Shown here: positions 7,286 through 52,290 of the stretch, in pieces
How the letters are laid out: each line of letters opens with the position of its first letter
How positions within the stretch are numbered: the first letter of the stretch is position 1
Assembly: GCA_038245295.1 (NCBI GenBank)
Contig: JBBRSP010000016.1
Span: forward strand, 1 to 64,000
DNA length: 64,000 bases
Direction of reading: 5' to 3'
From: Candidatus Binatia bacterium
GTDB lineage: Bacteria > Desulfobacterota > Binatia > HRBIN30
The notes under the pieces: generated by a model
Told to the model about the DNA's origin: nothing
The model's input: only the letters and a program-made list of their open reading frames with translations
Database searches by the model: none
Program-made: the position numbers and the translations under genes

Positions 7286-8766
7286 GCGGCCTTCTTCCTC
7301 TTCGAACGAGACTCGCCGCTCTTCGGAGCAGCCGCCTTCGCGCTCTCGCGTTCGGCCCGGATGCGTTCCAGTAGGATCGCCGCGGGTTCGTCGTTCGGGT
7401 CTTGATCGACAAGCTTCCCCTCGAATGCCCATTTCAAGATGCTCTGGCGTAGGCGATCGCATCGGGATTGCTCGCTTGTCAGAACTTTTTCAACCTTGTC
7501 GATGATTGAAGTGCAGGAATCGACGTGAGCGACAATCCGAGACTGCTCGGCTGCGGGCGGGAGCGCGACAATGATCTTGATCATCCGGGTAAGCCCGAGA
7601 TCTTGATTGCCTACACCGTGAGTAAATCGCTGTGCCTGTACGTAGCAAGGAGGTGAGTTTAACGCGTGCTGAACGTAAACCGGCATGACGGACTCAACCA
7701 GCTTGAGCACCGCCACGTGCACCCATACGCTGAATTCCCGGTCGTAGGTGTTGGCGCGCGCGATCCCAGTGGTCCCGCCCTTCGTGTACAGGATATCTCC
7801 CTTTTCAGGTTTGCATCGCCTCGACAGCTCGGCATGCACCTCCGGTGCGATCCTTTTTGCGTTCGCAAAATCTACGCCGTCAGGTCGAACATTTCCTCCT
7901 GTGACGATGGGAATTCCATCCTCGCTGTACTTCGGGCTGTAGTGCGGGCCGTCCTTGACTGACCACGCGAGCTGCCCGACACTCACCCAACACCACCCGT
8001 CCGGGAGCTCCGATAGCTCCATCGTGTCTGGCTCAGCTGATTCCTTGTACTTCGCTTTCCACTTGTCGTCCTTCGGCGGCTTACCCTTCGCCTTCATCGC
8101 GGCGAGCTCGGCCTCCTCCCAGCGACGGCGACGCTCGGCAAGGATGCGCTTCAACAGCTCGGACGCAGGCTCGTAGTCCCGCCCCTCCTGCCGCGCCAGC
8201 TCCGCCTCGGTGGGCACCAACCGTCCTTCGACGGCGGCTTTGAGCACAGAAGCGCGGTACCGCTTGAGGTTCGCTTGCACGCGCTCCAGCGCGGCGACGG
8301 CGGCATCGAGACGAGGGAGTTGGGTCTCGATAGCTTCTACAACGCGCGATTGTTCGGCAAGCGGTGCAATTGGAAAACGGAGCTTCCGCAGTATCGAGAA
8401 GTGGCGTGCGTACCCGCGATTTGGGACTTCCGCCGACTTTAGTGCCCAGTATGCGTACTTGGGCTCGACGCCCACTCTCGACGACAGCACCTTGACACCG
8501 TCAGCTCCCTGAATGAACGGGTACGGGCTGAACTTCACATTCCGCGTGTGGTCTCCGAAGATTACAACGGGAAGCGGGCTCGGATGGACGAGAGACTGGT
8601 CATCCGAGTACCCTCCAACCTCCGCCTCTCCTTGATCGATTACTGGAAAGCGCCCCGAATCTTTGTACTTCCTCTCCGCAAGTTTCAGATCGGAGGTGAC
8701 GTTTTCGAAGACTTGATCAAACTCCGCACTCGTCCATGAGGCTGGGAGAGATTGCATCGCCTTCAT
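7282..8766 (-). CDS. hsdS: Type I R-M specificity subunit
   Basis: Two TRDs, each followed by a conserved PLAEQSRVV/PPAAEQSRIV helix; ASVLKAAVEGRL and QSILKWAFEGKL repeats; TAATG overlap with hsdR. Confidence 0.93.
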   Translation of the reverse strand: MKAMQSLPASWTSAEFDQVFENVTSDLKLAERKYKDSGRFPVIDQGEAEVGGYSDDQSLVHPSPLPVVIFGDHTRNVKFSPYPFIQGADGVKVLSSRVGVEPKYAYWALKSAEVPNRGYARHFSILRKLRFPIAPLAEQSRVVEAIETQLPRLDAAVAALERVQANLKRYRASVLKAAVEGRLVPTEAELARQEGRDYEPASELLKRILAERRRRWEEAELAAMKAKGKPPKDDKWKAKYKESAEPDTMELSELPDGWCWVSVGQLAWSVKDGPHYSPKYSEDGIPIVTGGNVRPDGVDFANAKRIAPEVHAELSRRCKPEKGDILYTKGGTTGIARANTYDREFSVWVHVAVLKLVESVMPVYVQHALNSPPCYVQAQRFTHGVGNQDLGLTRMIKIIVALPPAAEQSRIVAHVDSCTSIIDKVEKVLTSEQSRCDRLRQSILKWAFEGKLVDQDPNDEPAAILLERIRAERESAKAAAPKSGESRSKRKKAA

Positions 8767-11636
8767 TACGCTGCCAGCACTTCGTTTAGTTCGCGCAACA
8801 CCTTACCCAAGTCTCCCCCGAACACTTGTCGGGCTTTCCCTAGCCCACCCTCGGCAGAGAATGGTGTGTAGTCGAGATCATCGAAGCCGATCTCCAAACT
8901 GGTTGCGACGTGGTCGCGCATCATCTCCAGCCAGCGACGCTGCTGGTCGGTGAACTTCCGTCCTTCGTTCTCTTGTTGCGCCATCCAGTTGTCGAATCGC
9001 TCCCGTACTTGATCGGGGAACGGCTTCAGCTCGTTCTCTCGGTGCAAGGCGAAGCGAACGAGAGAGACCATGTCCGTGACCAGGCGTTCGCCCGACGTTT
9101 GCCGCACGCGGTCCTTCTCAACGACCTCGTAGGCTCGCCACAGTTTTTCCGGGGTCCACTGGCGCGGCGGTAGTTTGATCGCAGCAACCAGATCCTTGAT
9201 GTCTTTGAAGCCCAGGCGTCGTCCCGGCGGCTGGTTGTACAGGAACTGGAGCGCGTCGATTTCGTCCTTGTTCTCATCGATGAACTTCTCGAACGACTCG
9301 ATCAAGCCCTTCGCTTTTGTCTTCGCTTCCTCAGAACTGCCCGCGTCCAGGAGTACGTCGGTGCTGATGTCGTCGATGATCTGCTCAAACTTCGTCTTCA
9401 ACTCGATCAGCAGCTTGCGCAGCTTCGGATTCGTCGCCAGCGGCGCGACCGCCGCCTTGCAGAGCTTCTCGGCGACCTGTTTGAGCTGTCCCTCTGTCGG
9501 GTCGGCGTCCTCGGGGATGCTGAACTCCGCCCGGGCGATCTCCTCCTGCTTCTCCGGCGCGATTGCCTTCAAGATGTCTTGCGTGATCGCCCCGAGAGTT
9601 TTTCCTGCGGATGATTGGAGGATTTGCTTGTGCTCGTCGCCTCCGCACTGGCGTTCAAGGCGGGCCAGACGGCTTGCAAGGGATGACAGGTAGTCTTCGT
9701 TGGTGCCGCCCGACGCGACATGCTCCAGCAGGGTCTTGAACCCGACACTCTTGTTGCGCTCCAGCGGCGTTGCCTCGGTCTTTTCCTGCGTACACACGCC
9801 GACGCAGTCGACGATCACGAAGCGGTCCTTGGTGGAGGCGTCCGGCGTGACGGCACGCAGCTCGTTGTTGTCGATAACGCGCACGCCGCGCCCCTTCATC
9901 TGGTCGAACAGCAGGCGACTCTGCACCATGCGCATGAACATGACGATCTCGATGGGCTTGATGTCGGTACCGGTGGCAATCATGTCGACGGTTACGGCAA
10001 TGCGCGGCCAAAAGCTGGTGCGGAAATCCTGAATGAGCTGGCGCGGGTCGGCTCCGGTGGTCTTGTACGTGATCTTCTGGGCGAACTGGTCGCCCCGGCC
10101 GAACTCGTCGCGCACGATCTCGACGATGTCCTCGGCGTGGCTGTCGTCCTTCGCGAAGATCAGCGTCTTCGGCACCTCGGTCCTGCCCGGGAAGATTTCG
10201 GTGAAGAGTCGCTCCTTGAAGGTTCGGACAATCGTTCGGATCTGATCCTTCGCAACCACGTTGTGATCGAGATCGCCCGCCGCGTAGGTGTAATCCTGGT
10301 CGGGCTTCTCCCAGCGCACCTGCCGCGTTGCCTTGTCACGGTGGCCCAAGACAATACCTTCGTCGGCAACCACCGTCGCACCGCTCTTGGTGATCTGGGT
10401 GACGATGTTGTAGACGTCGAAGTCGACGTTGACGCCATCGGCGACGGCTTGCTCGTGCCCGTACTCCATGACGAGGTTCTTGTTGAAGAACCCAAAGGTA
10501 TGTTTCGCGGGTGTCGCGGTCAGGCCGATCAGGAAGGCATCGAAGTACTCCACGACCTCGCGCCATAGGGAGTATATGCTGCGGTGGCACTCGTCGATCC
10601 AGACAACGTCGAAGAACTCCGGCGGGATCGTCGAATTGTAGGTCACGTGAACAGGACGCGCTGGAGACATGACGCCTGTCTCGTAGGCGGAATGCTCTTC
10701 CAGGTCCGGGTCCAGCTCGGGCTCGCCGGACAGCATCGAAAACAGCCGTTGAATGGTAGTGATCACCACCTTCGCCGAATCGCCGATCGTGTTCGAGGTG
10801 AGCCGCTGCACGTTGTAGAGCTCGGTGAACTTGCGATTGACGTCGGGAGCAACGAAGCCTTGGAACTCCTTCTCGGCCTGCTCGCCCAGGTTGGCGCGAT
10901 CGACAAGGAAGAGCACCCGACGCGCGCCGCCGTACTTGATGAGGCGGTACGCCGAGGTGATCGCCAGCTTGGTCTTGCCGCTGCCCGTCGCCATCTGAAT
11001 CAAGGCGCGCGGTTTGTTTTCGTAGAGCGAGCGTTCCAGTCGCTCGATGGCCTCGACCTTATTCTGCCACAGCCCCGGAAGAACAACCTCGGGCATCGCA
11101 CGCAGGCGCGACCGGAATGTGGCCGGACGCTTCATGTCGAGCTTGCGAGCTTCCAACTCGGTGGCCGTGCGCCAGCCGCCAACCCAGTCTGCAAGCGGCT
11201 GCTGCTGGAGCCACTCGGCGACCGTCTCTGGTCGATGGAACGAGACCACGCGGCGACTGCGCGGATCGGGATCAAGATCATTCAAGAAGAGCGTTTCGGT
11301 TCCGGTGCTGGAGTACAGGAAGGGAAGCGGACGGATCGGCGGTGACAGCTCGTCCGGTAGCCCCTCCGAGTACTTCTTCGCCTGCACCTGAACCCCGGAG
11401 AGCGTGTACCCGGCAGGCTTCGCCTCGACGACACCGACGGGGCGCTCGTCGACGAAGAGCAGGTAGTCCGCGAAGCCGTGCTCACTCTTCATCTTGAACT
11501 CGCGCACAGCGACGCCGCGCCGCGCCGCAAGGTTCATGTCGGCGCGGTCCTGCACCTCCCATCCAGCAGCGTCGAGCGCCGCGTCGATCAGCAGACGCGC
11601 CTTGGCTTCAGGATCTGGGCCTTTTGAGGGAGACAT
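8766..11636 (-). CDS. hsdR: Type I R-M restriction subunit (EcoEI/EcoAI-like C-terminus)
   Basis: ADYLLFVD..VVEAK nuclease motif, ATGSGKT Walker A, DECH, LTATP, QMKGRG. Start is uncertain (11636-11657). Confidence 0.93.
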   Translation of the reverse strand: MSPSKGPDPEAKARLLIDAALDAAGWEVQDRADMNLAARRGVAVREFKMKSEHGFADYLLFVDERPVGVVEAKPAGYTLSGVQVQAKKYSEGLPDELSPPIRPLPFLYSSTGTETLFLNDLDPDPRSRRVVSFHRPETVAEWLQQQPLADWVGGWRTATELEARKLDMKRPATFRSRLRAMPEVVLPGLWQNKVEAIERLERSLYENKPRALIQMATGSGKTKLAITSAYRLIKYGGARRVLFLVDRANLGEQAEKEFQGFVAPDVNRKFTELYNVQRLTSNTIGDSAKVVITTIQRLFSMLSGEPELDPDLEEHSAYETGVMSPARPVHVTYNSTIPPEFFDVVWIDECHRSIYSLWREVVEYFDAFLIGLTATPAKHTFGFFNKNLVMEYGHEQAVADGVNVDFDVYNIVTQITKSGATVVADEGIVLGHRDKATRQVRWEKPDQDYTYAAGDLDHNVVAKDQIRTIVRTFKERLFTEIFPGRTEVPKTLIFAKDDSHAEDIVEIVRDEFGRGDQFAQKITYKTTGADPRQLIQDFRTSFWPRIAVTVDMIATGTDIKPIEIVMFMRMVQSRLLFDQMKGRGVRVIDNNELRAVTPDASTKDRFVIVDCVGVCTQEKTEATPLERNKSVGFKTLLEHVASGGTNEDYLSSLASRLARLERQCGGDEHKQILQSSAGKTLGAITQDILKAIAPEKQEEIARAEFSIPEDADPTEGQLKQVAEKLCKAAVAPLATNPKLRKLLIELKTKFEQIIDDISTDVLLDAGSSEEAKTKAKGLIESFEKFIDENKDEIDALQFLYNQPPGRRLGFKDIKDLVAAIKLPPRQWTPEKLWRAYEVVEKDRVRQTSGERLVTDMVSLVRFALHRENELKPFPDQVRERFDNWMAQQENEGRKFTDQQRRWLEMMRDHVATSLEIGFDDLDYTPFSAEGGLGKARQVFGGDLGKVLRELNEVLAA

Positions 11637-12123
11637 CGAACGGTGTGTATGCGGCAAACTTCAACGGGGGTCAAATTGTTCGGTGGCGAAGAAGCGGGGG
11701 CTGGGAAGCAGGCGGGTGTGCGGGGTCGGACCACGGCAACCTGCGGGAATGGTTCAGATCTGAGCCCGCATCGGCCTCGTCTTTCACTTTAGCGTGAGGT
11801 TTCCGGGGCGGATTTCGTGGCTCGAACGAGGCGAGACCGCCTTGAGGAGGCGGTTGCCGATTGTCGTACCACCCCAAAGCGGTTTTGCGGTTAGCGCTTG
11901 GGGACGGTTGACGGGTTAGCAACGACTCGCCGAGGTGATGCGTGACGCACACCTCACGCTGCAACTCGGCGAGCGAATGAGGACGTTTGCCTCAAATGTG
12001 CGCGAGCGTAAAGTACTGCCCGTAGCCCGAGGCTGCAAAGTGGGGGGGGCCCTTTAGCTGCCCTAGTCTTGATCAGCCTCAGGTCGGGTTGAGGTGGGAT
12101 GACGAGTCGGATACTTTGTAGGA

Positions 12124-12387
12124 ATGCAGGGTAAGACAAAGGTTTCGATCACCGTCCGTACGCGGTTGCTCAAAGAGGTTGAACGCGTCGCGGGGGACAC
12201 GAGCCGCAGTGCGATCTTTGATCAAGCTCTTGCTCACTGGCTGCAAGAACGACGACAAGGGCAACTCGAGCAAGACATCGAGAGCTACTACCGGTCTCTG
12301 AGTGCCGGGGAGAACGCCGAAGATGAGACATGGGCACAGGGCGGTGACGACACGGTGAACCGGGTTTGGAGCGAGCCCAAGCGGTGA
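12124..12387 (+). CDS. Ribbon-helix-helix antitoxin (MazE-like)
   Basis: KTKVSITV..LLKEVER...SRSAIFDQAL RHH pattern, acidic C-terminus, GTGA overlap with the toxin. Confidence 0.8.
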   Translation: MQGKTKVSITVRTRLLKEVERVAGDTSRSAIFDQALAHWLQERRQGQLEQDIESYYRSLSAGENAEDETWAQGGDDTVNRVWSEPKR

Positions 12388-12740
12388 CAGGAGAAGATCT
12401 CTACCCTCGTCGTGCCCACATCTATTGGGTCAAGGTCCCCGACGAGCCCGGCGGTAAGCGCCGACCCGCGTTGGTAGTGTCCCCTGACGTTCGGAACCGC
12501 TTGGCCAGTGACGTGATTGTTGTCCCCATCTCGAGCGTGCTGCGCGAGGCGCCGACGCACGTTCGTCTGCGTTCGCGAGAAGGTGGGCTCGCACGTCCAT
12601 CAGTAGCCAAATGCGAACAGATCACGACACTGCGTCGCGACCGATTGCTGCCGCGGCCGCTAAGCGGTGCCCTATCGGCTGCGCGTATGATCGAGGTGGA
12701 AAAGGCGATCCTGCGAGCCATCGGTGTTCCGATCCATTGA
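12384..12740 (+). CDS. mazF: MazF/PemK-family endoribonuclease toxin
   Basis: RAHIYWV...GKRRPALVVSPDVRN...VIVVPIS...CEQITTL. Confidence 0.9.
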   Translation: MTGEDLYPRRAHIYWVKVPDEPGGKRRPALVVSPDVRNRLASDVIVVPISSVLREAPTHVRLRSREGGLARPSVAKCEQITTLRRDRLLPRPLSGALSAARMIEVEKAILRAIGVPIH

Positions 12741-13002: not shown

Positions 13003-15339
13003 TCAGTCCTTGATTCCCAAGCTGCGCAGCAGCCGGGCAAAGTTGCTGCGGGACATTCCCAACAGACGAGCCGCGGCGGCCTGGTTTCCGCCAGCTTGCG
13101 TCAGGGCATCCATCGCACGCCTACGTTTCTCGTCACGTAGGCTTTCGCGAAGCGAAGAGCTTCCTTCGTCGCTCTCGGCCAATCCTGGCAGGTGGATCGG
13201 CTCGATGCGCTCGCCGTCGCAGATCAGCACGGCCCGCTCGACGACGTTCTGCAGCTCGCGGATATTGCCGGGCCACGCGTAGCGTTTCAGGGCGGTCATC
13301 GCCTCCGGGGAGAATCCGGCGATCGACTTGGCGAAGGCGGCGTTGGAGCGTTCGAGGAAGAACGAGGCCAACATTGGAATGTCGTTGCTGCGGGCGCGCA
13401 AGGCGGGCAACTCTATCGGCAGGGCGGCGAGGCGATAGTACAGGTCTTCGCGAAACTTGCCGGCGCGCACTTCGCGCTGCAGGTCCTTGTTGGTGGCGGC
13501 GATGATCCGCACGTCGAGCTTGATGGTCTGGCGGCCGCCGACACGTTGTACTTCGCGCTCCTGGAGGACGCGCAGCAGTTTGGTCTGCACCGCTTGCGGT
13601 AGGTCGGCAACTTCATCGAGAAAGATGCTGCCGCCTTGGGCCAGCTCGAAGCGGCCCGGTTGGCTGTCGACGGCTCCCGTAAACGCGCCACGTTCGCGGC
13701 CGAACAATTCACTCTCGGCGAGGTCGACAGGGATCGCCGGACAGTTCACGGTGATCAGCGGGCCGTCGCGGCGCGGGCTAGCGTCGTGCAAAGCACGGGC
13801 GATCAACTCCTTGCCGGTGCCGGTTTCGCCGGTGATGAGGACGGAGGTGTCGGTCGGCGCCACGCGCTCGACCAGGGCAAGCACCTGTTGCAGCTCCTGG
13901 CTGCTACCGACAATGTCGGAGAAACGCGACGCCGTGCGCACTTCCAAACGCAGGACACGATTCTCAGCGGCCAGGCGTTTCTGCAGCCCTTCGATTTCGG
14001 ACTTCTGCGATTCGATCCGCGTCACATGGTCGATGTTCGACCAGGCGATCCCGAGGCGCGAGGCCAGCAGCGCAAGCAGCGCTTGATCCGCATCGTCGAT
14101 GGCAGCGCCCGAGCGCTTGGCGCCGAGAGCCACGAGGCCGGGCCGATCGGGGTCGGGAATCGTTACGCAATACTCCCACGCATCGAGTCCGACGCTGCTT
14201 GGCAACGGCGTCGGCAGGTTGTCGGCGGTGGGTGGCAGCTGCGGCGGTGCATCCGGAAAGCCCTGTGCATACTCGAGGCGCAGGGGCCCCGCGGCTGGTG
14301 CCTGGCGATAGAGCGCGACACCGGTGACATCAAAACAATGCTGAATCGTCTGCGCGACGCGTCGCCCGACCTCGGCAGCACCGTCGAGCCGCACCACTTC
14401 CGTGGCCAACTCCCAGATCGCCGCACGCGCCGCCCGCCGCGCCGGGAAAAGCGCCCCAACCTGCGCTTCTATGGTAGAACGCCAACGGTTCGCCGCCACC
14501 ACACTCACGGCACCGACAATCAGGATCGGCCCACCACCGAGCAAAGCACTGCTACCAGCCGGTGCCTCGCTCACCCAGATCACCAACACTGTAAAAGGAA
14601 TCGCCACCGCCAGCGCCACCACCACAAACCCCGTGGCGCGGCTCACCAACGTATCGATCGGCAACACCCGGCGGCGAACAATGGCGTAAGAGGAAGTAAC
14701 AACGAAGATCGCCGGCGCCAGACGACCTACCGGAAACATGCCAAAGCCAAGGTTGCCCAGGTAGTTGAGCGCACCCAACGGAAGAAGAGTCGACATCCCA
14801 AGGAGCCAGTACTTCATCCGGAGACGAACGCGAGGTTCTGTGGCAATGACCATGCCTCTAACCGCGAGAGCCACGGCAATCACCGTCGTCAGCATGAAAA
14901 ACGCCACTTGGGGCACAAAGAATGGTCCAGGGCGAGCCATCTTGCCCCAGGGGTAGTCAAGATAACCGTCGACCACCAAATCGTGGAAGTGCAAGAAGCA
15001 GAATCCGAACGCGATCGCATATATTCCGCGGATGAGCCAAAGAACTCCGCGGAGCTCGATGAGACCCGACCAAGACGCAGCGATATGTGGAGCAGCGGTC
15101 GGCACCATGAGGGAGGCATATCGGAGAAGCCAGATTACCCGGTCGTGATTTTCAGGAAACCCTGAGAGCGACATGAGCCCCAAGCTCAATGCCCAGGCTG
15201 CAACACAGACGCCCGCAACAACAAATGATGGCACGAGCGAGCGCTCACGGGCACCAGCAATAACGGCAATCGTTGCTACCAACGACAGCGCGGTGGAAGC
15301 GAGAGGAATTGCGACTGCGAGAAGCTGGGCAGATGACAT
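13003..15339 (-). CDS. Membrane-bound sigma54-dependent activator (7TM sensor, GAF, AAA+, Fis-type HTH)
   Basis: Many TM helices, then GETGTGKE, ESELFG..RGAFTGA, FLDEV, WPGNIRELQN and NQAAAARLLGMSR. No receiver domain. Confidence 0.9.
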   Translation of the reverse strand: MSSAQLLAVAIPLASTALSLVATIAVIAGARERSLVPSFVVAGVCVAAWALSLGLMSLSGFPENHDRVIWLLRYASLMVPTAAPHIAASWSGLIELRGVLWLIRGIYAIAFGFCFLHFHDLVVDGYLDYPWGKMARPGPFFVPQVAFFMLTTVIAVALAVRGMVIATEPRVRLRMKYWLLGMSTLLPLGALNYLGNLGFGMFPVGRLAPAIFVVTSSYAIVRRRVLPIDTLVSRATGFVVVALAVAIPFTVLVIWVSEAPAGSSALLGGGPILIVGAVSVVAANRWRSTIEAQVGALFPARRAARAAIWELATEVVRLDGAAEVGRRVAQTIQHCFDVTGVALYRQAPAAGPLRLEYAQGFPDAPPQLPPTADNLPTPLPSSVGLDAWEYCVTIPDPDRPGLVALGAKRSGAAIDDADQALLALLASRLGIAWSNIDHVTRIESQKSEIEGLQKRLAAENRVLRLEVRTASRFSDIVGSSQELQQVLALVERVAPTDTSVLITGETGTGKELIARALHDASPRRDGPLITVNCPAIPVDLAESELFGRERGAFTGAVDSQPGRFELAQGGSIFLDEVADLPQAVQTKLLRVLQEREVQRVGGRQTIKLDVRIIAATNKDLQREVRAGKFREDLYYRLAALPIELPALRARSNDIPMLASFFLERSNAAFAKSIAGFSPEAMTALKRYAWPGNIRELQNVVERAVLICDGERIEPIHLPGLAESDEGSSSLRESLRDEKRRRAMDALTQAGGNQAAAARLLGMSRSNFARLLRSLGIKD

Positions 15340-15349
15340 CGGCTTTCCG

Positions 15350-17518
15350 TTAGCGCCCGCGTGCCTTACCAGATGAAGCGGCAAGGCGAGCGTCGTGTGG
15401 CTCGACGCTTTCTTTCGGTGTGAATAATGGACTACCCAGAGTCGACGAGGCAAGGTCAATGCTGAACGTAGCACCAACCCCCTCCTGGCTGCTCACCTCA
15501 ATATGACCGCCGTGCTCACTTACCAGCTGATGGACGATCGCCAGGCCCAGTCCGGTGCCTTTTTCCTTCGTAGTGAAGAACGGCACAAATATATGATCAA
15601 GTTGATCGCTCGCGATTCCCACGCCAGTATCGGCGACCTCAAGGCGGGCACAAGGCGCGCCACCTCGCTCGGCACGAGCTGTCCTTATCGAGACAGTCCC
15701 ACCAGCTTTACATGCCTGAATTCCGTTCAGGACGAGATTGATCAATATCTGCTTCATCTGGTCTTCGTCCGCATGGACCAGTGGCGTGTCCGGTGTCAAC
15801 GCTCGCTCGATCACAACCTTATATTTTCGAGCTTCAGGATCGAGTAGCGACACAACTCGTTCGATTAATTCATTCAGATCGAGCGGGCGGGGAGAGCGAG
15901 CGGGGGAACGTGCGAAAGCAAGCAGTTCATTGATGAGATGGGTGATGCGTTTCACCTCATCTGCGGCCATCGCGAGGAAGCTTGTAAAAAACTCCTCGTC
16001 GTGACGCCGGTCAGGGGCTAGCTGGAAGAACGTCTGAATCGAGACGAGAGGGTTACGAACCTCGTGCGCAATACCGGCCGCCAAGGTCCCGAGTGCGGAT
16101 AGGCGGTCCGCGCGTTGGATAATCTCCTGCGACTTCTTGAGTTCCTCATAGAGTCGAGCATTCTCGAGCGCGACGGAGGCTTCTGCGCCAAGGGTATCCA
16201 GCAGATCAAGATCGCCAGACGAGAACGCTTCCATATTTTGTTTCTGCCCCAAGGCAATGAAACCAATTATCGTGGGGCCCGCCGTTAGAGGGATACACGC
16301 TTCCCACCCATTCGCCTCAAAGAGGTCCGATATGCTTGCCACGACAGCGTCTCGATCCCCAGCCAACTCCGCATGAAGCACTGACCGGTGGCGCTCCCGC
16401 AGCATTCCAACAAGCGGGTGATCTGTGGCGAATGTGGTGGGGACTGGAGGGCCACCGACCGCAGCTTGTACCGTCAATTGCCGAATACGCGGCTCAAGGA
16501 GGACTACGACTAGCCGTTCGAGCTTCAGGCTCTGCGTAAGAGTCGACGTGAGCTCTGCGAGCAAACGGTCACGGTCAAGTATCCTTACGATAGAGCGGGC
16601 AAACGAGGAGAGCGCCGATCGATACTCATGGCGTTCTCGGAATAGCGAGCGCTCAATCCGGGACTGGGCGCGTGTCTGGAATGAGGGGAATAAGGCGGCT
16701 ACGCCGAGGAACAACAGGGCAACGGCGATGGAGAAATCGGGATGGATCTGGCCAAACGACTCGTATTGCAGCCACAGAATCAATCCGACAGCAGGCGCGA
16801 TCAACACAAAGACGACGGCTACGTATGCCATCCCCTTGCTAAGGAACAATTCTACGTCAAGCAGGCGGTGCCGAATGATCGCGTACGCAACAATCCCGGC
16901 CCAAATGGCATTAGCGAAGTTCCCCAACGGATAGAACTTGATTCCGTAGGCGGGAAGCAAATTCGTCAATCCGAAGGGTAGAGCCACTGCCGCCCCAAGT
17001 ACCCAAAAGCGAAGCTGCAAACGAATCCGTGGGTCGGTTGCCGTGCGCAGCCGGTAAATCAGAATGGAGGCGATCGCGATAAAATGCCCGATGAGGCTAA
17101 GAGTGAAGAGGTCATAGAACCGCCCGCCAACCGAGTAGTAGCCCCATGCGAACGGTCGCAGATCGGCGACAACCAGATCAAATAGATTTGCAACACTCAG
17201 AAACAGACTGACGGCGTATGAGAGCAAAAGTGGTAGCCGCGGAAGCGGCTTTGACTCGTCCAGTGAGAGAATGAGTTGCAGCAGCGCCGAGGGCAAAATG
17301 CAGGACCCCAACCGAGCCGGCCGGGCCAGCGCGAACGCGAGCGACTCGTCATGAACTTGGTACAGAACAAAAAAATGCAGATTCCACAGCGCCAACACGA
17401 GTGCTGCCCAGAGGAAGGTGCGCCCAATGCGCTCGCCACGGCGTCGAGAGTATACGAGGAGGCCCAAGACGACATCGGAGATTGCAGCCAGGAGAGGGAT
17501 CAGCGGATGGAACGACAT
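15350..17518 (-). CDS. 7TM-GAF sensor histidine kinase
   Basis: HisKA_7TM-like N-terminus, GAF, H-box IAHEVRNPL, N-box QILINLVLNG, DTGVGI, FFTTKEKGTGLGL. TGATG overlap with the upstream acyltransferase. Confidence 0.92.
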   Translation of the reverse strand: MSFHPLIPLLAAISDVVLGLLVYSRRRGERIGRTFLWAALVLALWNLHFFVLYQVHDESLAFALARPARLGSCILPSALLQLILSLDESKPLPRLPLLLSYAVSLFLSVANLFDLVVADLRPFAWGYYSVGGRFYDLFTLSLIGHFIAIASILIYRLRTATDPRIRLQLRFWVLGAAVALPFGLTNLLPAYGIKFYPLGNFANAIWAGIVAYAIIRHRLLDVELFLSKGMAYVAVVFVLIAPAVGLILWLQYESFGQIHPDFSIAVALLFLGVAALFPSFQTRAQSRIERSLFRERHEYRSALSSFARSIVRILDRDRLLAELTSTLTQSLKLERLVVVLLEPRIRQLTVQAAVGGPPVPTTFATDHPLVGMLRERHRSVLHAELAGDRDAVVASISDLFEANGWEACIPLTAGPTIIGFIALGQKQNMEAFSSGDLDLLDTLGAEASVALENARLYEELKKSQEIIQRADRLSALGTLAAGIAHEVRNPLVSIQTFFQLAPDRRHDEEFFTSFLAMAADEVKRITHLINELLAFARSPARSPRPLDLNELIERVVSLLDPEARKYKVVIERALTPDTPLVHADEDQMKQILINLVLNGIQACKAGGTVSIRTARAERGGAPCARLEVADTGVGIASDQLDHIFVPFFTTKEKGTGLGLAIVHQLVSEHGGHIEVSSQEGVGATFSIDLASSTLGSPLFTPKESVEPHDARLAASSGKARGR

Positions 17519-18144
17519 CAGATCCCCGCCCGCGTTCCAGTCCAAAGAAAACGGGCGACTGGGTCTCGACCGTCGATTGAGCGCTGCTTCAATTTGGAGA
17601 AGTCGAGGTGCATTACAAAGACAGTACCCCAATCCGGATGATCGAAGGCGAGGTCGTCGCGAATGCGAAAGGATGCGCGCTCATAAAGACGCTGCAGACG
17701 CTGAACATGCGTGCGCAGAACGTAGTCCGTGATGCCGTGTGAGGTGCCAAACTCGACCGCGTACCGCATCATCGCGAGGGGAAGCATCGCACCTCGCCCC
17801 CGGCGATGCTCCGGGAGCACCCAAAACCCTCCGATTTGCGCAACACAACGTCCAGGTAATTTGATACTCGACAACTCAACGAACTGCTCGATCTCAAGGG
17901 GTGCAGGGTCGGTGGTCAGGATCCGCATGCCGGCGAGAATCTGGCCGGTTTCGTCGAGCGCCACAAGGTGATGGGCACTCTCGTCAAAGCGATCCACACC
18001 GTGAAATCCAAACTCGTGACCATATATCGACCGGCGCGAGTGCAGCACTCGCTCCCGCAACGCCAAGTCCGCCTCAACAAATGTCACGTTCTCGAACAAC
18101 TCACTCCCTTTTCCAACTCTCGCGCCTAGATCACACGCTCGCAT
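17518..18144 (-). CDS. GNAT-fold N-acyltransferase of the FeeM/OlsB/LuxI (acyl-ACP-using) type
   Basis: R..IY..EFG..DRFDESAHHLVA...AGMRI...AQIGGFWVLPEHR...LYERASF. Start is uncertain (ORF track opens at 18192). Confidence 0.7.
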   Translation of the reverse strand: MRACDLGARVGKGSELFENVTFVEADLALRERVLHSRRSIYGHEFGFHGVDRFDESAHHLVALDETGQILAGMRILTTDPAPLEIEQFVELSSIKLPGRCVAQIGGFWVLPEHRRGRGAMLPLAMMRYAVEFGTSHGITDYVLRTHVQRLQRLYERASFRIRDDLAFDHPDWGTVFVMHLDFSKLKQRSIDGRDPVARFLWTGTRAGI

Positions 18145-18239
18145 GGTATCCTTGAATTGCGCACCCAATGCTCGTACTTTCCCCAAACCCACGTAGTTTA
18201 GTCAAGGCTGCGTGGGAAAGTTGGAAGGGGGGAGAGTCT

Positions 18240-18503
18240 GTGGCCGTTCTCCCGTTGCCGAGCCGTTCGCAGGTCGAGGCACAGATCGTCAAGCTCCTGG
18301 GCGACATTGCGGGAATCGATCCTGCGGTGATCACGCCGTCGGCGTCCATCGAGAACGAACTGCAGTTGCAGTCGGTGCAGTTCGTCGAGCTGCAGGTGGC
18401 GTTGGAAGACGAGTACGACATCGAGCTTGATCCGATCGAGATCATCGAGCGCGGGCGCTTCGATTTGATCGTCGACTATGTCTACGCGTGTGCCGTGGCG
18501 TGA
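18240..18503 (+). CDS. Acyl carrier protein with an atypical LQLQSV phosphopantetheine motif
   Basis: Small and acidic; ITPSASIENELQLQSVQFVELQVALEDEYDIEL. GTG 18240 follows GGAGAG. Confidence 0.75.
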   Translation: MAVLPLPSRSQVEAQIVKLLGDIAGIDPAVITPSASIENELQLQSVQFVELQVALEDEYDIELDPIEIIERGRFDLIVDYVYACAVA

Positions 18504-19642
18504 TGCTGTTTTCCGACGCCCATGAGCGCTTTCGCGCCGAGACGCGTGAGATCATCGAACGTGAGCTGACGCCGCATGCCGACGAGTGGGAAGCCGCCGG
18601 CGGGTTTCCGGTCGACCTGATGCCGCGCCTCGGAGCTCTGGGATGGTTTGGCATGAGTTACCCCTGCGACGTCGGTGGGCGCGGGCTCGACTTTGGTTAC
18701 GATGTTGTCCTCGGCGAGGAGCTGCCGCGCTCGAAGATGTTCGGACTCGGGCTCAGCCTGGTGGCGCAGGCGCATTTCGTCACCCCTCTGCTGCTGCGCT
18801 ACGGCACAGCGGAACAGAAACAGCGCTTTGCCGTGCCGACGATTCAGGGGCAAGTCGTCGGCGCCCTCGCCGTCACCGAGCCGAGCGGCGGTTCCGACGT
18901 GGCCGGCGCCGCGCAATGCAGCGCCGTCGACGACGGCGACTCGTGGATCGTCAACGGCGACAAGAAGTTCATCACCAACGCGCCGATCGCCGACTTCGTC
19001 GTCACCCTCGTGCGGACGCGGCCCGAATCGACCAACACTAGCCTCTCCTTGCTCATCATCCCCACCGACACACCCGGCTTCCGACGCCGCGCCACTCTGC
19101 GCAAACTCGGCATGCATACTTCGCCGACCGGTTGGATCGAGTTCGAGGATTGCCGCGTTCCCAAAGACCTGACGCTCGGCAAACCCAACCTGGCGTTCTT
19201 CTACGTCACACAACATCTGCTGCGCGAGCGGCTCATCGCCGCCATCACCTCGGTGTCGTTCGGCGATCTGATCCTCAAGGAGACCATCACCTACGTGCAG
19301 CAACGCGCCGCCTATGGCGGCACGCTGAGCGATCTGCAGTCGCTGCGCCATCGCCTCGCCGAGCTGGCCGCCGATGTGGAAATGGGCCGCCGCTTCGCCC
19401 ACTCGGTCGCCGAACGCTTCCGCGACGGTCACATCGAGGCCAAAGAGATCTGCATGATGAAATTCCGCGTCGTCGAGATGATGCAGCGCCTGGTCGAATC
19501 CTGTCTGCAGATGCACGGCGGTTATGGCTACCTGGAAGAGAACTGGCTAACCCGCGCCTATCGCGACGTGCGGATGCTCACCGTCGGTGGCGGCGCTTCG
19601 GAGTTGATGAAAGACCTGGTGGCGGGTTATCTACGGGTCTAG
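18503..19642 (+). CDS. Acyl-CoA/acyl-ACP dehydrogenase
   Basis: ALAVTEPSGGSDV, NGDKKFITN, KLGMH, QMHGGYGYLEE, RAYRDVR..VGGGASE. TGATG overlap with the ACP. Confidence 0.93.
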   Translation: MLFSDAHERFRAETREIIERELTPHADEWEAAGGFPVDLMPRLGALGWFGMSYPCDVGGRGLDFGYDVVLGEELPRSKMFGLGLSLVAQAHFVTPLLLRYGTAEQKQRFAVPTIQGQVVGALAVTEPSGGSDVAGAAQCSAVDDGDSWIVNGDKKFITNAPIADFVVTLVRTRPESTNTSLSLLIIPTDTPGFRRRATLRKLGMHTSPTGWIEFEDCRVPKDLTLGKPNLAFFYVTQHLLRERLIAAITSVSFGDLILKETITYVQQRAAYGGTLSDLQSLRHRLAELAADVEMGRRFAHSVAERFRDGHIEAKEICMMKFRVVEMMQRLVESCLQMHGGYGYLEENWLTRAYRDVRMLTVGGGASELMKDLVAGYLRV

Positions 19643-19672
19643 CGCAGTCTTGGGGGCAGTTGGGAGGGGTGA

Positions 19673-20917
19673 GTGCGGCGCGTCGGCATCAGCGGCCTTG
19701 GGGTGATTGCCCCTACAGGAGTCGGCATCGATTCGTTCTGGAGCGCCCTCCTCGAGGGCCGCTCGGGCATTCGTGAGATCAGCCGCTTCGATGCCTCCAT
19801 CTATCCCTGCCGCATCGGCGGCGAAGTGCGCGACCTGAGCTACGAGTCGCTCTTCGATGTCCGCAAGCTGAAGACGGCCACCCACGCATCCCAACTCGCC
19901 CTTGGTGCCAGTGAGCTGGCGCTACGCGACGCCCGCCTCGGCAGCACGCAATACGACCCGTTCACCACCGGCGTCATGGTCGGCACGGCACTCGGCGGCT
20001 GGCGCGAGGGCGAACAACAATACGGCATGATCCTGGCGCGCGGCGCGCGCCGCGTGAACCCGTTCCTCGCCAACGGCGCGCCGCATCATAACCCGGGCGT
20101 CGAAATCGCCGCCGCCATCAATGCCCGCGGCGCTCACACGACCTTTTCCGCCGGCTGTGTCTCCGGCCTCCAGGCGATCGGCCACGGCGCGGCGCTGATC
20201 AGCGCCGCGCAGCTCGACGTGTGCATCGCCGGCGGCGTCGAAAGCCCATTGGTCGCGCTGGTCTTCGCCGGCATGGGCCGGACCCACGAGTTGTCGACTC
20301 GTAATGATGCACCCGCCGCCGCCTCGCGGCCGTTCGATCGCGACCACGACGGCATCGTGCTGAGTGAAGGCGCCTGCTTCGTCGTCCTCGAACCGCTCGA
20401 ACGCATCGCGGCGCGCGGCATCACACCCTATGCCGAAGTGCTGGGCTACGGTTCGTCCTGCGACGCCCAGGGTGTCTACTCGTTCGACGAAAGCGGCGAG
20501 ACGGCGGCACGCACGCTGCTCGGACTTCTGACACGTACAAGCACACGGCCCGAGGACATCGACTACGTCTGCGCCCACGCCAACTCGGCAGCGACGTTCG
20601 ATCGCAAGGAGACGATTGTCCTCAAGCGCGCCTTCGGGGAGCTGGCCGGTCGTATCCCGGTGAGCTCGATCAAAGGCGTGCTCGGCCACTCACTCGGCGC
20701 CTCGGGGGCCTTCCAAACGACGGCCGCCTGCCTGGCCATGCGCCACGCGATGATTCCACCGACCCATAACCTCGACGCGCCGGCACCGGAGTGTGATCTC
20801 GATTATGTGCCCAACACGCCACGGGCCGCGGCTCTCAAGACCGTTGTAGTCACCAACTACGGCTACGGCGGCATCAATGCCTATCTGCTGCTGGCTGCAA
20901 AGCGCGATCCGGACTGA
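19673..20917 (+). CDS. FabF-like beta-ketoacyl-ACP synthase (divergent)
   Basis: RRVGISGLG, SAGCVSG (Cys), AHANS (His), KGVLGHSLGASG (His), SRPFD, NYGYGG. Confidence 0.9.
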   Translation: MRRVGISGLGVIAPTGVGIDSFWSALLEGRSGIREISRFDASIYPCRIGGEVRDLSYESLFDVRKLKTATHASQLALGASELALRDARLGSTQYDPFTTGVMVGTALGGWREGEQQYGMILARGARRVNPFLANGAPHHNPGVEIAAAINARGAHTTFSAGCVSGLQAIGHGAALISAAQLDVCIAGGVESPLVALVFAGMGRTHELSTRNDAPAAASRPFDRDHDGIVLSEGACFVVLEPLERIAARGITPYAEVLGYGSSCDAQGVYSFDESGETAARTLLGLLTRTSTRPEDIDYVCAHANSAATFDRKETIVLKRAFGELAGRIPVSSIKGVLGHSLGASGAFQTTAACLAMRHAMIPPTHNLDAPAPECDLDYVPNTPRAAALKTVVVTNYGYGGINAYLLLAAKRDPD

Positions 20918-20967: not shown

Positions 20968-21600
20968 CTAGCCGGGGCGCTTGACCTCGAGCTTGGGGCG
21001 CTTCGGCAGGTGGCGCAGGCCCATCCAGGCCAGCGCGGCGATGTGACTCGCCACTTCCTCGATTGGCGGCTTGCGTGTTTCAGTCCACCACTGGCCGACG
21101 AAGGTCACCATGCCAACCAAGGCATGGGCATAGATCGGCGCCGACTTGGAATCGAAGCCGGCTTTCTTGAAGTTCATGGCGAAGACGTCCGAGACCCGCT
21201 CCGCCACATCATTGAGCAAACTCGACATGCCGCCGCGCGCCAGGTTGAGCGGCGCATCGCGTGAGAGAACGACGAATCCATCCGGCTGGTCGCGCACGTA
21301 GGTGAGGAAGGCGAGCGCCGCGTTCTCCACCCGCGCGCGCGGCGTGCCGCTCGAAATGGCTTCGGAGATGCGCTGAACGACGTATTCCATCTCGCGATCG
21401 ACGAGCACGGCGTAGAGGCCTTCCTTGCCGCCGAAATGTTCATAGATGATCGGCTTCGACACCTTGGCGCGCGCCGCGATCTCTTCGACCGACGTCGCCT
21501 CGAAGCCGTGTTTGGCAAAGACGGCGCGGGCGATCTCAATCAGCTGCGAGCGCCGCGCCGGAGCACTCAAACGCGGCAGCGATCTTTTTTTCGAAATCAT
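20968..21600 (-). CDS. TetR-family transcriptional regulator
   Basis: FAKHGFEATSVEEIAARAKVSKPIIYEHFGGKEGLY HTH. Confidence 0.93.
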   Translation of the reverse strand: MISKKRSLPRLSAPARRSQLIEIARAVFAKHGFEATSVEEIAARAKVSKPIIYEHFGGKEGLYAVLVDREMEYVVQRISEAISSGTPRARVENAALAFLTYVRDQPDGFVVLSRDAPLNLARGGMSSLLNDVAERVSDVFAMNFKKAGFDSKSAPIYAHALVGMVTFVGQWWTETRKPPIEEVASHIAALAWMGLRHLPKRPKLEVKRPG

Positions 21601-21621
21601 GTTGACGCACCTACCGCTCTT

Positions 21622-21670
21622 CCGTATGTTACGCAACCGTAAGTTACGGACACGTAACCGTAGGTTACGG
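21622..21670. promoter_or_regulatory. Three 13-bp palindromic boxes, consensus CCGTANGTTACG(G/C); putative TetR operators
   Basis: ccgtatgttacgc at 21622, ccgtaagttacgg at 21637 and ccgtaggttacgg at 21658, in the divergent tetR/desaturase spacer. Confidence 0.7.
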
Positions 21671-21697
21671 TACCGACGGTAGACACAAGGAGAAGCC

Positions 21698-22765
21698 ATG
21701 GAAACGAGCCCCAGCCTCAACGAAGCCCAGTCGGTCCAGTACTATGCACGCGCCGTGCGACAACACCTGCCCGCCACAACCTTTCAGCGGACGCCGTCGC
21801 GCCTGCTGTGGCTACCGGTGCATCTGGCAATCATCGGCGGCCTCGGCGCCTACATCGTTGTCGCCGCACCACCCTGGTACGTGGCGCTGCTGGGCGCCGT
21901 GATCGCCGGCCACAGTTGGGGCTGCCTTGGTTTCCTGGCGCACGAGGCCCTGCACCATGCGCTGGTGAAGAGTCCGGTGATCGAGAAGATCGTCGGCTAC
22001 TTCGGCTTCGGTCCGTACTTCCTGTCGCCGACGTTATGGACCGCCTGGCACAATCAGGCGCACCACGGCAACACCGGCAAACCGGTGGCCGACCCGGACG
22101 GCTTCGGAACCCTACGGTTCTGGGAAAAGAGCGGCGTCGTGCGCAGCCTCGAGAAGCTCTCGCCAGGATCGGGCTACAAGCGCAGCGGTGCCTTCCTGTT
22201 CGTCTGGTTCTCACTGCACTCGTTTCTGGTTCTCGTCTTCCACAGTCAACGCAACAATTACTACACGCGCGTATCGCGCCGTGTCGTCTACGCCGAGTCG
22301 GCGGCCATGATCGTCTTCTGGGCCCTGGTCTTCGCCCTGGTCGGACCGTGGAACTTCCTGTTCGTCTATGTCGTGCCGGTGCTCATCGCCAACGCCGTGG
22401 TGATGTCGTACATCGCGACGAACCACTTCCTGAACCCGCTCACCGAGATCAACGATCCGCTCGCCAACACGCTTTCGGTCACGGCGCCGCGCTGGCTCGA
22501 GTTTCTGCACCTGCAGTTCGGCTATCACGTCGAACATCATCTGTTTCCGATGATGAGCGGGCGCCATGCTCCGGCGGTACGTGAAGTCATCGTCCGACTC
22601 TACGGCGAGCGTTACCTCAACATGCCGTTGTCGCGCGCTCTGTATCTCCTTTACACACGCCCGAAGGTACACGGTCAGTACGAGACCCTCGTCGACCCGC
22701 GCACCAAGGAAGTGTTCCAGACATTGTTACCTGGCGATTTGTCGATGGCTCCGCTGCACGGCTAA
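21698..22765 (+). CDS. Membrane fatty acid desaturase
   Basis: Three His boxes HEALH, WHNQAHH and HVEHH; TM segments; AAGGAG RBS. Confidence 0.92.
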   Translation: METSPSLNEAQSVQYYARAVRQHLPATTFQRTPSRLLWLPVHLAIIGGLGAYIVVAAPPWYVALLGAVIAGHSWGCLGFLAHEALHHALVKSPVIEKIVGYFGFGPYFLSPTLWTAWHNQAHHGNTGKPVADPDGFGTLRFWEKSGVVRSLEKLSPGSGYKRSGAFLFVWFSLHSFLVLVFHSQRNNYYTRVSRRVVYAESAAMIVFWALVFALVGPWNFLFVYVVPVLIANAVVMSYIATNHFLNPLTEINDPLANTLSVTAPRWLEFLHLQFGYHVEHHLFPMMSGRHAPAVREVIVRLYGERYLNMPLSRALYLLYTRPKVHGQYETLVDPRTKEVFQTLLPGDLSMAPLHG

Positions 22766-49092: not shown

Positions 49093-49262
49093 GGAGGCAT
49101 TTGTAGGCCTTCAAACGCGCCATCAGAGACAATCGACAGTCTCCATGGCTTGGATGTCACTTGCGTGAGCCTCGCTGTCGAGTGAAGCTAGGACCGACTC
49201 AAGGGCGGCGGCTGGGCGGCACTGAAACCGGCCGACGCAACCGAACAAGCGGGCTGACAGCA

Positions 49263-50555: not shown

Positions 50556-50640
50556 ACCGGCGCGAGGTGCGACTGCTCTTGGCCGCACGCGTCGCCATGT
50601 TGAGTCACTACCGGGATGATACTAGAGGGTGCTGCCTGTG

Positions 50641-51975: not shown

Positions 51976-51999
51976 GAGTGCCCCGGAACGAGGTTACCC

Positions 52000-52290
52000 A
52001 TGGAGAATGGACACATCAGCCCCGATCGCCCCGCGGTGCTCGCCAAAGTTCGCCACGCGATCGCCGAGGTGCTGGCTGACAACCGCGTCGAGGTGAAGGT
52101 CGCCGATCACCTGGTTGACGACCTTGGCCTCGACTCAACCAGCATCGCCAGCCTGACGATCGCTCTCGAGGACGAGTTCGATGAAGTCTTGCTCCTCAAC
52201 GATTGGATCGCCGAGGCGCATAGCCCGAGTGATCTCACTGTCGATTCGCTGGTCGACTATCTGATGGGTTTGCTAGCGGAGAGTGATTGA
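52000..52290 (+). CDS. Acyl carrier protein
   Basis: LVDDLGLDST phosphopantetheine motif, ALEDEFD, acidic. Confidence 0.9.
   Translation: MENGHISPDRPAVLAKVRHAIAEVLADNRVEVKVADHLVDDLGLDSTSIASLTIALEDEFDEVLLLNDWIAEAHSPSDLTVDSLVDYLMGLLAESD

Follow-up and report, generated by a model that had tools for sequence, protein, structure and literature searches.

Contig JBBRSP010000016.1 of a Candidatus Binatia bacterium (6.6-Mb genome, 96.6% complete) carries, within the 64,000-nucleotide stretch analyzed here (the window), two divergent operons in which a GNAT acyltransferase, a membrane-bound histidine kinase, and genes for acyl-chain enzymes lie side by side. We consider it probable, judging from comparisons of sequences and models, that the acyltransferase makes an N-acyl amide that is exported and sensed by the kinase, in a signaling module that does without LuxR. 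All six open reading frames (ORFs) described in the original prediction are present in the arrangement given there; they are listed here together with an intergenic element.

13003-15339, minus strand: membrane-bound sigma54 activator with a HisKA_7TM-like domain, shortened GAF, AAA+, and Fis helix-turn-helix (HTH); 778 aa
15350-17518, minus strand: HisKA_7TM-GAF-HisKA-HATPase_c histidine kinase; 722 aa
17518-18144, minus strand: FeeM/LuxI-fold GNAT acyltransferase, the likely signal synthase; 208 aa
18152-18205, both strands: putative overlapping divergent sigma70-like promoter pair, TTGACT-18-GAAAGT on the minus strand and TTGAAT-17-TACTTT on the plus strand
18240-18503, plus strand: acyl carrier protein (ACP) with an invariant Ser45 in (Q/E/N)SV context; 87 aa
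18503-19642, plus strand: long-chain-type acyl-CoA/ACP dehydrogenase (ACAD), an optional tailoring enzyme; 379 aa
19673-20917, plus strand: FabF-like ketosynthase (KS) with Cys162/His302/His339 intact; 414 aa

As predicted, the GNAT stop and kinase start overlap as TGATG, the activator follows the kinase after 10 bp, and the acyl operon diverges from the GNAT gene across a 95-bp gap, within the roughly 100 bp expected; a second TGATG overlap lies at the ACP/ACAD junction. The reported absence of LuxR also holds, in that a search of the 96.6% complete genome for PF03472, the LuxR autoinducer-binding domain, gave no match, whereas an E. coli control was positive. We place the GNAT start at ATG 18144, which has an AAGGA ribosome site and yields a 208-aa database protein (P0001); a longer GTG start at 18192 would lie within the conserved promoter element.

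Conservation of the acyltransferase-kinase pair

A GNAT homologue was found in 34 of 61 relatives and, within the host order, patchily in 33 of 52 genomes. Synteny was scored for 34 of the 35 non-self GNAT matches, from 33 genomes (L035 and L036 are two loci of one genome), and the predicted pairing with a HisKA_7TM kinase is kept: the kinase directly follows the GNAT gene in 33 of the 34 loci, the miss being a weak match (E 8e-4) from another order. Strong sensor matches in genomes with no GNAT match lie at contig ends, are frameshifted, or have a divergent GNAT present. The sole exception seen among strong sensor matches with upstream DNA is a second sensor kinase (L047:11719-15149), which has its own tandem KS upstream and no GNAT, a layout as in Syntrophaceae. 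Frameshifts or stops interrupt the kinase or GNAT gene in L031, L040, and L134, mostly few-contig assemblies (sequencing error or decay).

Across the class, a GNAT profile search matched 64 of 251 genomes. Among 36 regions covering 41 of the 49 matches from other orders, an MMPL gene adjoins the GNAT gene in 23; 13 have a close sensor kinase gene, for the most part divergent from the GNAT gene, and the ten weakest regions have none. Three genomes of another order (two sharing a genus label) carry two tandem GNAT-kinase pairs, which look like the products of one duplication. From the sensor side, the nearest named loci are mostly Candidatus Binatia among the best 80 of 402 matches (tree label Binatota).

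Joint divergence and apparent exchange of GNAT and sensor

When pairwise identities were compared over the 26 loci having all parts, kin among them not being independent, GNAT divergence followed that of the kinase transmembrane helices 1 to 7 (TM1-7; rho 0.81), with lower values for GAF (0.46), the kinase core (0.48), ACP (0.39), and KS (0.30). The relation between GNAT and TM1-7 persists given GAF and core (partial rho 0.75, reached in 0 of 1000 permutations), whereas the partial rho of GNAT is 0.02 with GAF and 0.05 with the core, the core value being given TM. The kinase core and KS, which lie on opposite flanks, correlate with each other at rho 0.72. Trees agree in part with this pattern: GNAT and TM share 7 of 23 splits, the cytoplasmic part and KS 8, and GNAT and the cytoplasmic part 3, and a clade of L041, L042, L045, L047, and L048 that cuts across families is backed by GNAT and TM trees alike.

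Two loci from the same genus, L019 (genome G029) and L042 (G026), have flanking DNA that is 92% identical, and their protein identities are 96% for KS, 50% for ACP, 31% for GNAT, 43% for TM1-7, 65% for TM8-9, 72% for GAF, and 98% for the core; ACAD is present in L042 only. For each of them, another family holds a GNAT and a sensor that are far more similar (54/62% and 60/67%, respectively). A similar trend is seen between L020 and L047 (KS 73%, GNAT 25%, TM 41%, core 83%), and the congeners L029 and L034 have GNATs that are 34% identical, that is, fast-evolving. Because GNAT evolves fast in other congeneric pairs too, the L019/L042 swap is the only unambiguous one. GNAT and sensor appear to have been exchanged together between species, and their joint swapping suggests that they are likely a fatty-acyl signal-and-receptor pair with species-specific dialects, the kinase being the likely cognate receptor of the GNAT. 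Separately, we considered the low third-position GC content of the GNAT and kinase genes as a sign of recent transfer and set it aside, since relatives are alike (medians 0.64 and 0.69, versus 0.76 for KS and ACAD).

An acyltransferase between the FeeM and LuxI groups

Acetyltransf_5 is the best Pfam family for the window GNAT, which scores above its cut-off (29.6 bits; cut-off 22.4); the GNAT scores 25.9-26.1 bits against FeeM (PF21926; cut-off 27) and 16.2 against Autoind_synth (cut-off 24). Among 121 homologues at E 0.001, the three families match 83, 73, and 8, respectively, and a homologue from another order (in L132) clears the PF21926 cut-off with 40.1 bits. The structural model (predicted local distance difference test [pLDDT] 91) has FeeM (2g0b) as its top match (Z 17.9, root mean square deviation [rmsd] 2.8, 173 residues aligned, 9% identity), with the LuxI-type structures TofI and LasI at Z 15.6 and Z 15.1, and its ESM Atlas neighbours are mainly FeeM clusters. 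The model bears out the FeeM/LuxI-type fold first proposed for this protein. The family profile is nearer to TofI (E 6.6e-7) than to FeeM (E 0.048), and since structure favors FeeM and the sequence profile favors TofI, we place the GNAT between the two groups.

Aligned with TofI, the GNAT keeps R37, Y41, D51, D54, and R74, and does not keep the Trp and the Glu that precede DxxD; R37, D51, D54, R74, E86, R114, and Y154 are conserved. A CoA-binding motif-A-like pattern occurs in just 4 of the 121 homologues. GNATs that are decarboxylases of the polyketide synthase type have His at the motif-B position, and we dropped this identity because the position is Tyr in 120 of the 121 homologues.

A kinase sensor that models as GPCR-like

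The kinase matches HisKA_7TM (PF16927) at 32.6 bits (cut-off 28.6), together with GAF, HisKA, and HATPase_c; its H, N, D/G1, F, and G2 boxes are all present, and Pfam finds no Response_reg domain in its 722 aa. Described earlier as a 7TM kinase, it does have a seven-helix bundle (residues 1-222, 17518-16853), to which the model adds two further helices, making nine in the membrane region (7 + 2; pLDDT 94). The bundle matches seven-helix folds of the G-protein-coupled receptor (GPCR) type at Z 13-15.8 (rmsd 3.4-4.2, 6-19% identity), and the 50 best structural matches listed are GPCRs, a designed GPCR-like fold, AdipoR2, ceramidase, and one unnamed membrane protein. We describe the sensor as modeling as a GPCR-like bundle, a moderate match for helical bundles, and a shared fold shows no function. 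Foldseek returned no match to the sensor at E 0.001, and CqsS, LuxN, and AgrC are not among the structural matches listed for it, which excludes nothing. PF16927 is present in 28 of 30 ESM Atlas matches. Six intramembrane polar residues are kept in the kinase sensors: N46 (30/32), R69 (29/32), N111 (31/32), Y135 (31/32), T185 (31/32), and N186 (31/32).

The sigma54 activator

The original prediction held that two paralogous 7TM proteins read the same signal. Their paralogy is clear: the activator membrane region is 26% identical to that of the kinase over 261 aa (E 3e-21), homologous although it has no PF16927 match. The activator GAF is shortened (hhalign probability 96%, E 1.4e-9; no Pfam GAF match by itself), Walker A/B, GAFTGA, and HTH_8 are present, and an RpoN-box ORF lies on contig C3. 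That both proteins read the signal is not borne out, and neither is the activator's place in the conserved synteny: it stands directly behind the kinase in just 7 of 33 loci, and in 12 of 52 genomes of the order when four further genomes and the host are added. The activator membrane domains are without N46, R69, N111, and Y135, and over 8 loci GNAT follows the activator membrane domain at rho 0.25, versus 0.74 for the kinase sensor.

In a quick tree, the activator membrane domains form a long-branched clade within the Binatia sensors, and activators of relatives resemble the window copy at ~30% in the membrane domain, 55-71% in AAA+, and 61-77% in the HTH. As far as sequence tells, the activator is an accessory, later duplicate of the sensor, and it probably reads a different or broader input than the kinase. 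A metagenome scan with the full activator yielded 80 generic activators (41-52% identity), none of which matched the membrane part. GAFTDA replaces GAFTGA in five of the 7TM activators (L026, L036, L045, L130, and L131). There are also soluble GAF-sigma54 activators with no membrane domain (host C30:56392-57834; also in L043, L045, and L128), whose AAA+ is 64-69% identical to that of the window activator and whose HTH is similar; in three relatives they lie directly behind the 7TM activator. More distant 7TM-sigma54 activators (L138:6553-9246 and L147:7023-9608) are unlinked and belong to genera without an adjacent copy.

The acyl-chain operon and its surroundings

The ACP is acidic, with Ser45 invariant; the KS is FabF-like, with catalytic Cys162, His302, and His339 and a family-specific HANS motif; and human long-chain ACAD is among the best matches of the ACAD, the two being aligned at the ERL motif, which has a catalytic role in ACADs. 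The host genome has three genes of the ACPS family (phosphopantetheinyl transferases; PPTases). ACP adjoins GNAT in 30 of 33 loci (31 counting a contig-end fragment) and KS is present in 28, the ACP and KS misses being mostly contig ends. Of the 28 loci with KS, 18 have an ACAD gene between ACP and KS; among the 10 without ACAD, a desaturase follows KS in one, a B12 radical-SAM gene follows the kinase in three, and an AMP-binding ligase occurs in two. The operon had been proposed to be dedicated to a custom unsaturated chain. The operon is conserved beside the acyltransferase-receptor unit, but the unsaturated chain is borne out only partly: ACAD is optional (18 of 28 loci), and in four genomes the ACP-ACAD genes are split off from GNAT or occur without it, which speaks against strict dedication.

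Just past KS (window 20968-22765) lie a TetR gene (minus strand) and a fatty-acid desaturase gene (plus strand, 21698-22765); the desaturase may be a second tailoring enzyme, since it is 49% identical to the L046 desaturase that overlaps KS where ACAD is missing. Flanking the cassette (window 7282-12740) are genes for type I restriction and for a toxin-antitoxin pair that resembles MazF/PemK. In relatives, the cassette adjoins MMPL-CarD-IspD, often with sucA/sucB/lpd, and 13 of 28 loci of the order have the same MMPL gene at most two genes away from KS; in the host, unlike in relatives, the MMPL locus sits on contig C5 and the cassette is not beside it, and the block therefore appears to have been relocated in the host. 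A second acyl cluster (window 49161-55942) includes metallo-beta-lactamase-like and P450-like genes, an ACP gene (52000-52290), a crotonase-like gene, and an AMP-binding ligase gene (53963-55942), the metallo-beta-lactamase-like, P450-like, and crotonase-like labels having been assigned by eye; the ligase could load ACPs.

A conserved intergenic element

The pattern TTGACT-N17/18-xAxxxT-A-N16/18-xxTCAA is present in 15 of 26 GNAT-ACP intergenic regions, a set from which L031 (inserted gene) and L033 (layout) were left out. It is found in 0 of 1000 shuffles and at a single site in the 6.6-Mb host genome (18152-18205), and we infer that it comprises two overlapping divergent sigma70 promoters. 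A consensus promoter scan found 0 sites, and the element emerged only through comparison of relatives; a looser form of the pattern is absent from 15 loci of other orders.

Relatives of the sensor outside Binatia

A pattern scan was run with the sensor alignment, that of the GNAT being too diverse for it, and the best 80 of 402 confirmed matches gave 67 loci outside Binatia, 64 of which were scored and three of which had no upstream DNA. A lipid or small-molecule enzyme is encoded directly upstream of the sensor relative in 34 of the 64, including ketosynthase operons, CER1-like reductases, Methyltransf_20, a LuxD-methyltransferase fusion, diiron enzymes, and GMC/flavin oxidoreductases; some of these enzymes were typed via a cluster with a Pfam-annotated member. 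As a control, one of 64 kinase-like ORFs in the host, the window kinase itself, follows a gene of those enzyme families, just those families being tested. Sensor clades tend to have a common upstream enzyme type across phyla in a quick tree of 98 rows.

One HisKA_7TM clade has a CER1-like/acyl-ACP-reductase-like gene directly upstream (L067, L071, L073, L080, L083, L093, and L098, with a FadL channel preceding in L071), its hosts being Bdellovibrionales, Gammaproteobacteria, Bacteroidetes, and Patescibacteria. Genes of Methyltransf_20 type lie directly upstream of HisKA_7TM kinases in L079, L084, L086, L088, L090, L091, L092, L095, L106, and L126, several of them Patescibacteria. The gene before the Nitrospirota kinases with two tandem HisKA_7TM domains (L074, L078, L079, and L089) encodes a diiron enzyme resembling heme oxygenase (with a PilZ fusion in L089), an HMG-CoA reductase, or a PilZ-methyltransferase-like protein.

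A putative N-acyl amide signal and its alternatives

If the locus is a signaling module, a PPTase encoded in the genome would load the ACP, KS would extend the chain, and ACAD would optionally desaturate it. The GNAT would move the acyl chain from ACP to an amine to give an N-acyl amide, the acceptor being likelier an amino acid or amine than homoserine lactone. The MMPL transporter (contig C5 in the host) would export the product, which may bind a polar pocket of the seven-helix bundle formed by N46, R69, N111, Y135, T185, and N186. The kinase would signal to an unlinked receiver; in other orders a sigma54 activator with a receiver domain (REC) adjoins the kinase, and its best match in the host (C29:50059-51489, 50-53%) is the best candidate partner, though a weak lead. 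Exchanged GNAT-sensor blocks would then give strain-specific dialects.

We also put forward, tentatively and as falling a little short of probable, a broader reading in which HisKA_7TM domains are GPCR-like receptors of lipid signals across phyla, each with a swappable synthase. The Binatia pair would be N-acyl amide quorum sensing with agr-like dialects, and in some lineages a copy of the receptor would have become joined to a sigma54 activator, creating a one-component membrane receptor.

Several observations weigh against the signaling reading. Pfam finds no receiver (response regulator) gene among the 14 ORFs around the locus. Sigma54 promoter patterns are absent from the window, with four scattered matches among relatives, none conserved, nor was a conserved activator site between the operons found among relatives; with no sigma54 site conserved, nothing points to the activator as a route of autoinduction. 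ACP-ACAD(-KS) genes are distant from GNAT in G040 and G007; G036 (100% complete) and G011 (83%) have them, but in these two genomes neither a GNAT nor a kinase was detected. Besides the kinship among the loci compared, GNAT and TM trees are not identical, and every alignment rejects all foreign trees in approximately unbiased tests (5000 replicates, flagged as too few); GNAT and sensor are also adjacent, and one recombination tract moves both regardless of function. Outside Binatia, 30 of the 64 loci are without an upstream enzyme, 14 of these being one Acidobacteria orthologue group. Finally, the E-x-S/T-R motif of LuxI and FeeM is Q103-I-G-G106 here (Glu to Gln103, Arg to Gly106). A Glu on beta4 is catalytic in FeeM-type synthases, and Gln103 was equated with it via TofI, not FeeM itself; a Glu stands at this position in 11 of 32 own-order homologues and in 38 of 43 rows from other orders, which include distant, possibly unrelated GNATs.

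Self-sensing is the alternative that fares best, although we think it unlikely: the product of the enzymes would be an amino-lipid of the membrane or a secreted metabolite (a surfactant or an antibacterial N-acyl amino acid), and the kinase would monitor that product in the membrane of its own cell. Acetyltransf_5, the best family of the GNAT and of 83 of its 121 homologues, includes lipid N-acyltransferases, the promoters look constitutive, and the MMPL protein resembles lipid exporters; N-acyl amino acids are reported as antimicrobial, with a signaling role merely speculated, in the text available from PMC7293339. However, a structural lipid needs no hypervariable synthase-sensor block swapped among congeners, and the unit has a patchy distribution, with 33 of 52 genomes carrying it.

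The loss of the catalytic Glu equivalent in 21 of 32 own-order homologues and the tight translational coupling of the two genes could instead mean that in the host order the GNAT is mainly a binding partner, which binds acyl-ACP or the cytoplasmic face of the receptor and controls the kinase directly, hence the co-evolution; there is a precedent in CqsA, which binds and inhibits CqsS (in the part of PMC13729885 consulted). We regard this as improbable, as the GNAT follows the membrane bundle and not the cytoplasmic GAF or core, where the partial rho values are 0.02 and 0.05, and R37, D51, D54, R74, E86, R114, and Y154 remain conserved. Homologues in other orders, moreover, retain the Glu (38/43) and are transcribed away from the kinase.

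Still less probable is a divergent LuxI whose acyl-homoserine lactone is read by a membrane receptor other than LuxR. The profile preference for TofI (E 6.6e-7) over FeeM (0.048) and the alignment with the R, DxxD, and R in the N-terminal motif of LuxI are as this would have it, but Autoind_synth matches 8 of 121 homologues and the window GNAT at 16.2 bits versus 24, the E-x-S-R motif is not kept, nor are the Trp and Glu that precede DxxD, and FeeM tops the structural matches by more than 2 Z units over TofI and LasI. Hitch-hiking in a mobile neighbourhood with no ligand-receptor relation, to which the adjacency of GNAT and kinase, the relocated host block, and the acyl operons split in four genomes might point, is very improbable, since the pairing persists through a tandem-to-divergent layout change across orders and through pairwise duplication, and the divergent tract of L019/L042 fades inside the kinase gene (TM1-7 43%, GAF 72%, core 98%).

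Implications and comparison with known systems

HisKA_7TM/PrsK-type sensors are widespread, and the portions of PMC1569441 and PMC5847659 consulted name no ligand for them; the present locus offers a candidate ligand-making enzyme. Genomes G029 and G026 form a natural allele pair, with 96-98% identical flanking proteins and a different synthase and sensor, and with the candidate enzyme they allow both ligand and specificity to be tested in E. coli, with no need to culture Binatia. If correct, the signaling reading would give the uncultured class Binatia its first cell-cell signaling system and would provide a bacterial GPCR-like fold that reads an acyl amide. The words quorum, signal, and histidine kinase do not occur in the main text of a Binatota survey (PMC8262859), and a literature search, outside which most subscription papers and supplements lay, found no description of this GNAT-kinase system.

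FeeM-type synthases (PF21926 and PF13444) resemble the GNAT in fold, as its best structural match, and in having an ACP beside the enzyme, and differ in that the window GNAT is below the PF21926 cut-off and has Gln for the catalytic Glu; we know of no FeeM coupled to a co-varying membrane receptor as the GNAT is here. The conserved residues of LuxI are R, F, W, E, D, D, and R plus the E-x-S-R motif. Unlike LuxI/LuxR, the module has an Autoind_synth score of 16.2 versus 24 bits, does not keep the E-x-S-R motif, and has no LuxR domain.

The ExoAT/PrsK/PrsR proteins of PEP-CTERM systems are similar in that an N-acyl synthase co-occurs with a HisKA_7TM-GAF kinase. In the excerpts consulted, the ExoAT acyltransferase is connected with the PEP-CTERM/exosortase system (PMC11072679) and the PrsK stimulus is described as unknown (PMC1569441). 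The window kinase aligns with the PrsK profile (TIGR02916) over nearly its full length, but at 179.9 bits it stays below the cut-off of 300, and its GNAT has no NCBIfam match to TIGR03694 (ExoAT); six of eight homologues scanned match that profile, at 21-40 bits versus a cut-off of 112. There is no PrsR beside the kinase, and none of 24 genome matches to PrsR (TIGR02915) is over the cut-off. Three partial matches to the exosortase family PF09721 exceed the cut-off on other host contigs.

The N-acyl-cyclolysine (ACL) system attributed to Linares-Otoya in 2025 reportedly requires an ATP-dependent cyclase, and a transcription factor is said to read its signal. The window locus has no ATP-dependent cyclase, a distinction drawn from descriptions of the ACL system. 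ACL is presented, in the section of PMC13419125 consulted, as a recent non-AHL (acyl-homoserine lactone) N-acyl signal of Bacteroidota, a phylum without the LuxI/R paradigm.

In the staphylococcal agr specificity groups, a variable signal-making and sensor block is exchanged inside conserved flanks. The variable synthase and sensor within conserved flanks make the Binatia locus similar, although it would use a lipid and not a peptide, and the proteins are unrelated. CqsA is a PLP (pyridoxal phosphate)-dependent enzyme whose fold differs from GNAT, and LuxN senses an acyl signal in its membrane domain. CqsS likewise senses an acyl-derived signal within the membrane domain of a histidine kinase (PMC13729885, in the text consulted). 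CqsA/CqsS and LuxM/LuxN of Vibrio resemble the module as proposed here in that an acyl-derived signal is read in the membrane domain of a kinase with no LuxR, and differ from it in that the window kinase has a GAF, lacks a receiver domain, and has GPCR-type matches listed for its sensor. While the module lacks tested features of LuxI/LuxR, ExoAT/PrsK/PrsR, and CqsS and resembles FeeM only by fold, it would work like CqsA/CqsS or LuxM/LuxN.

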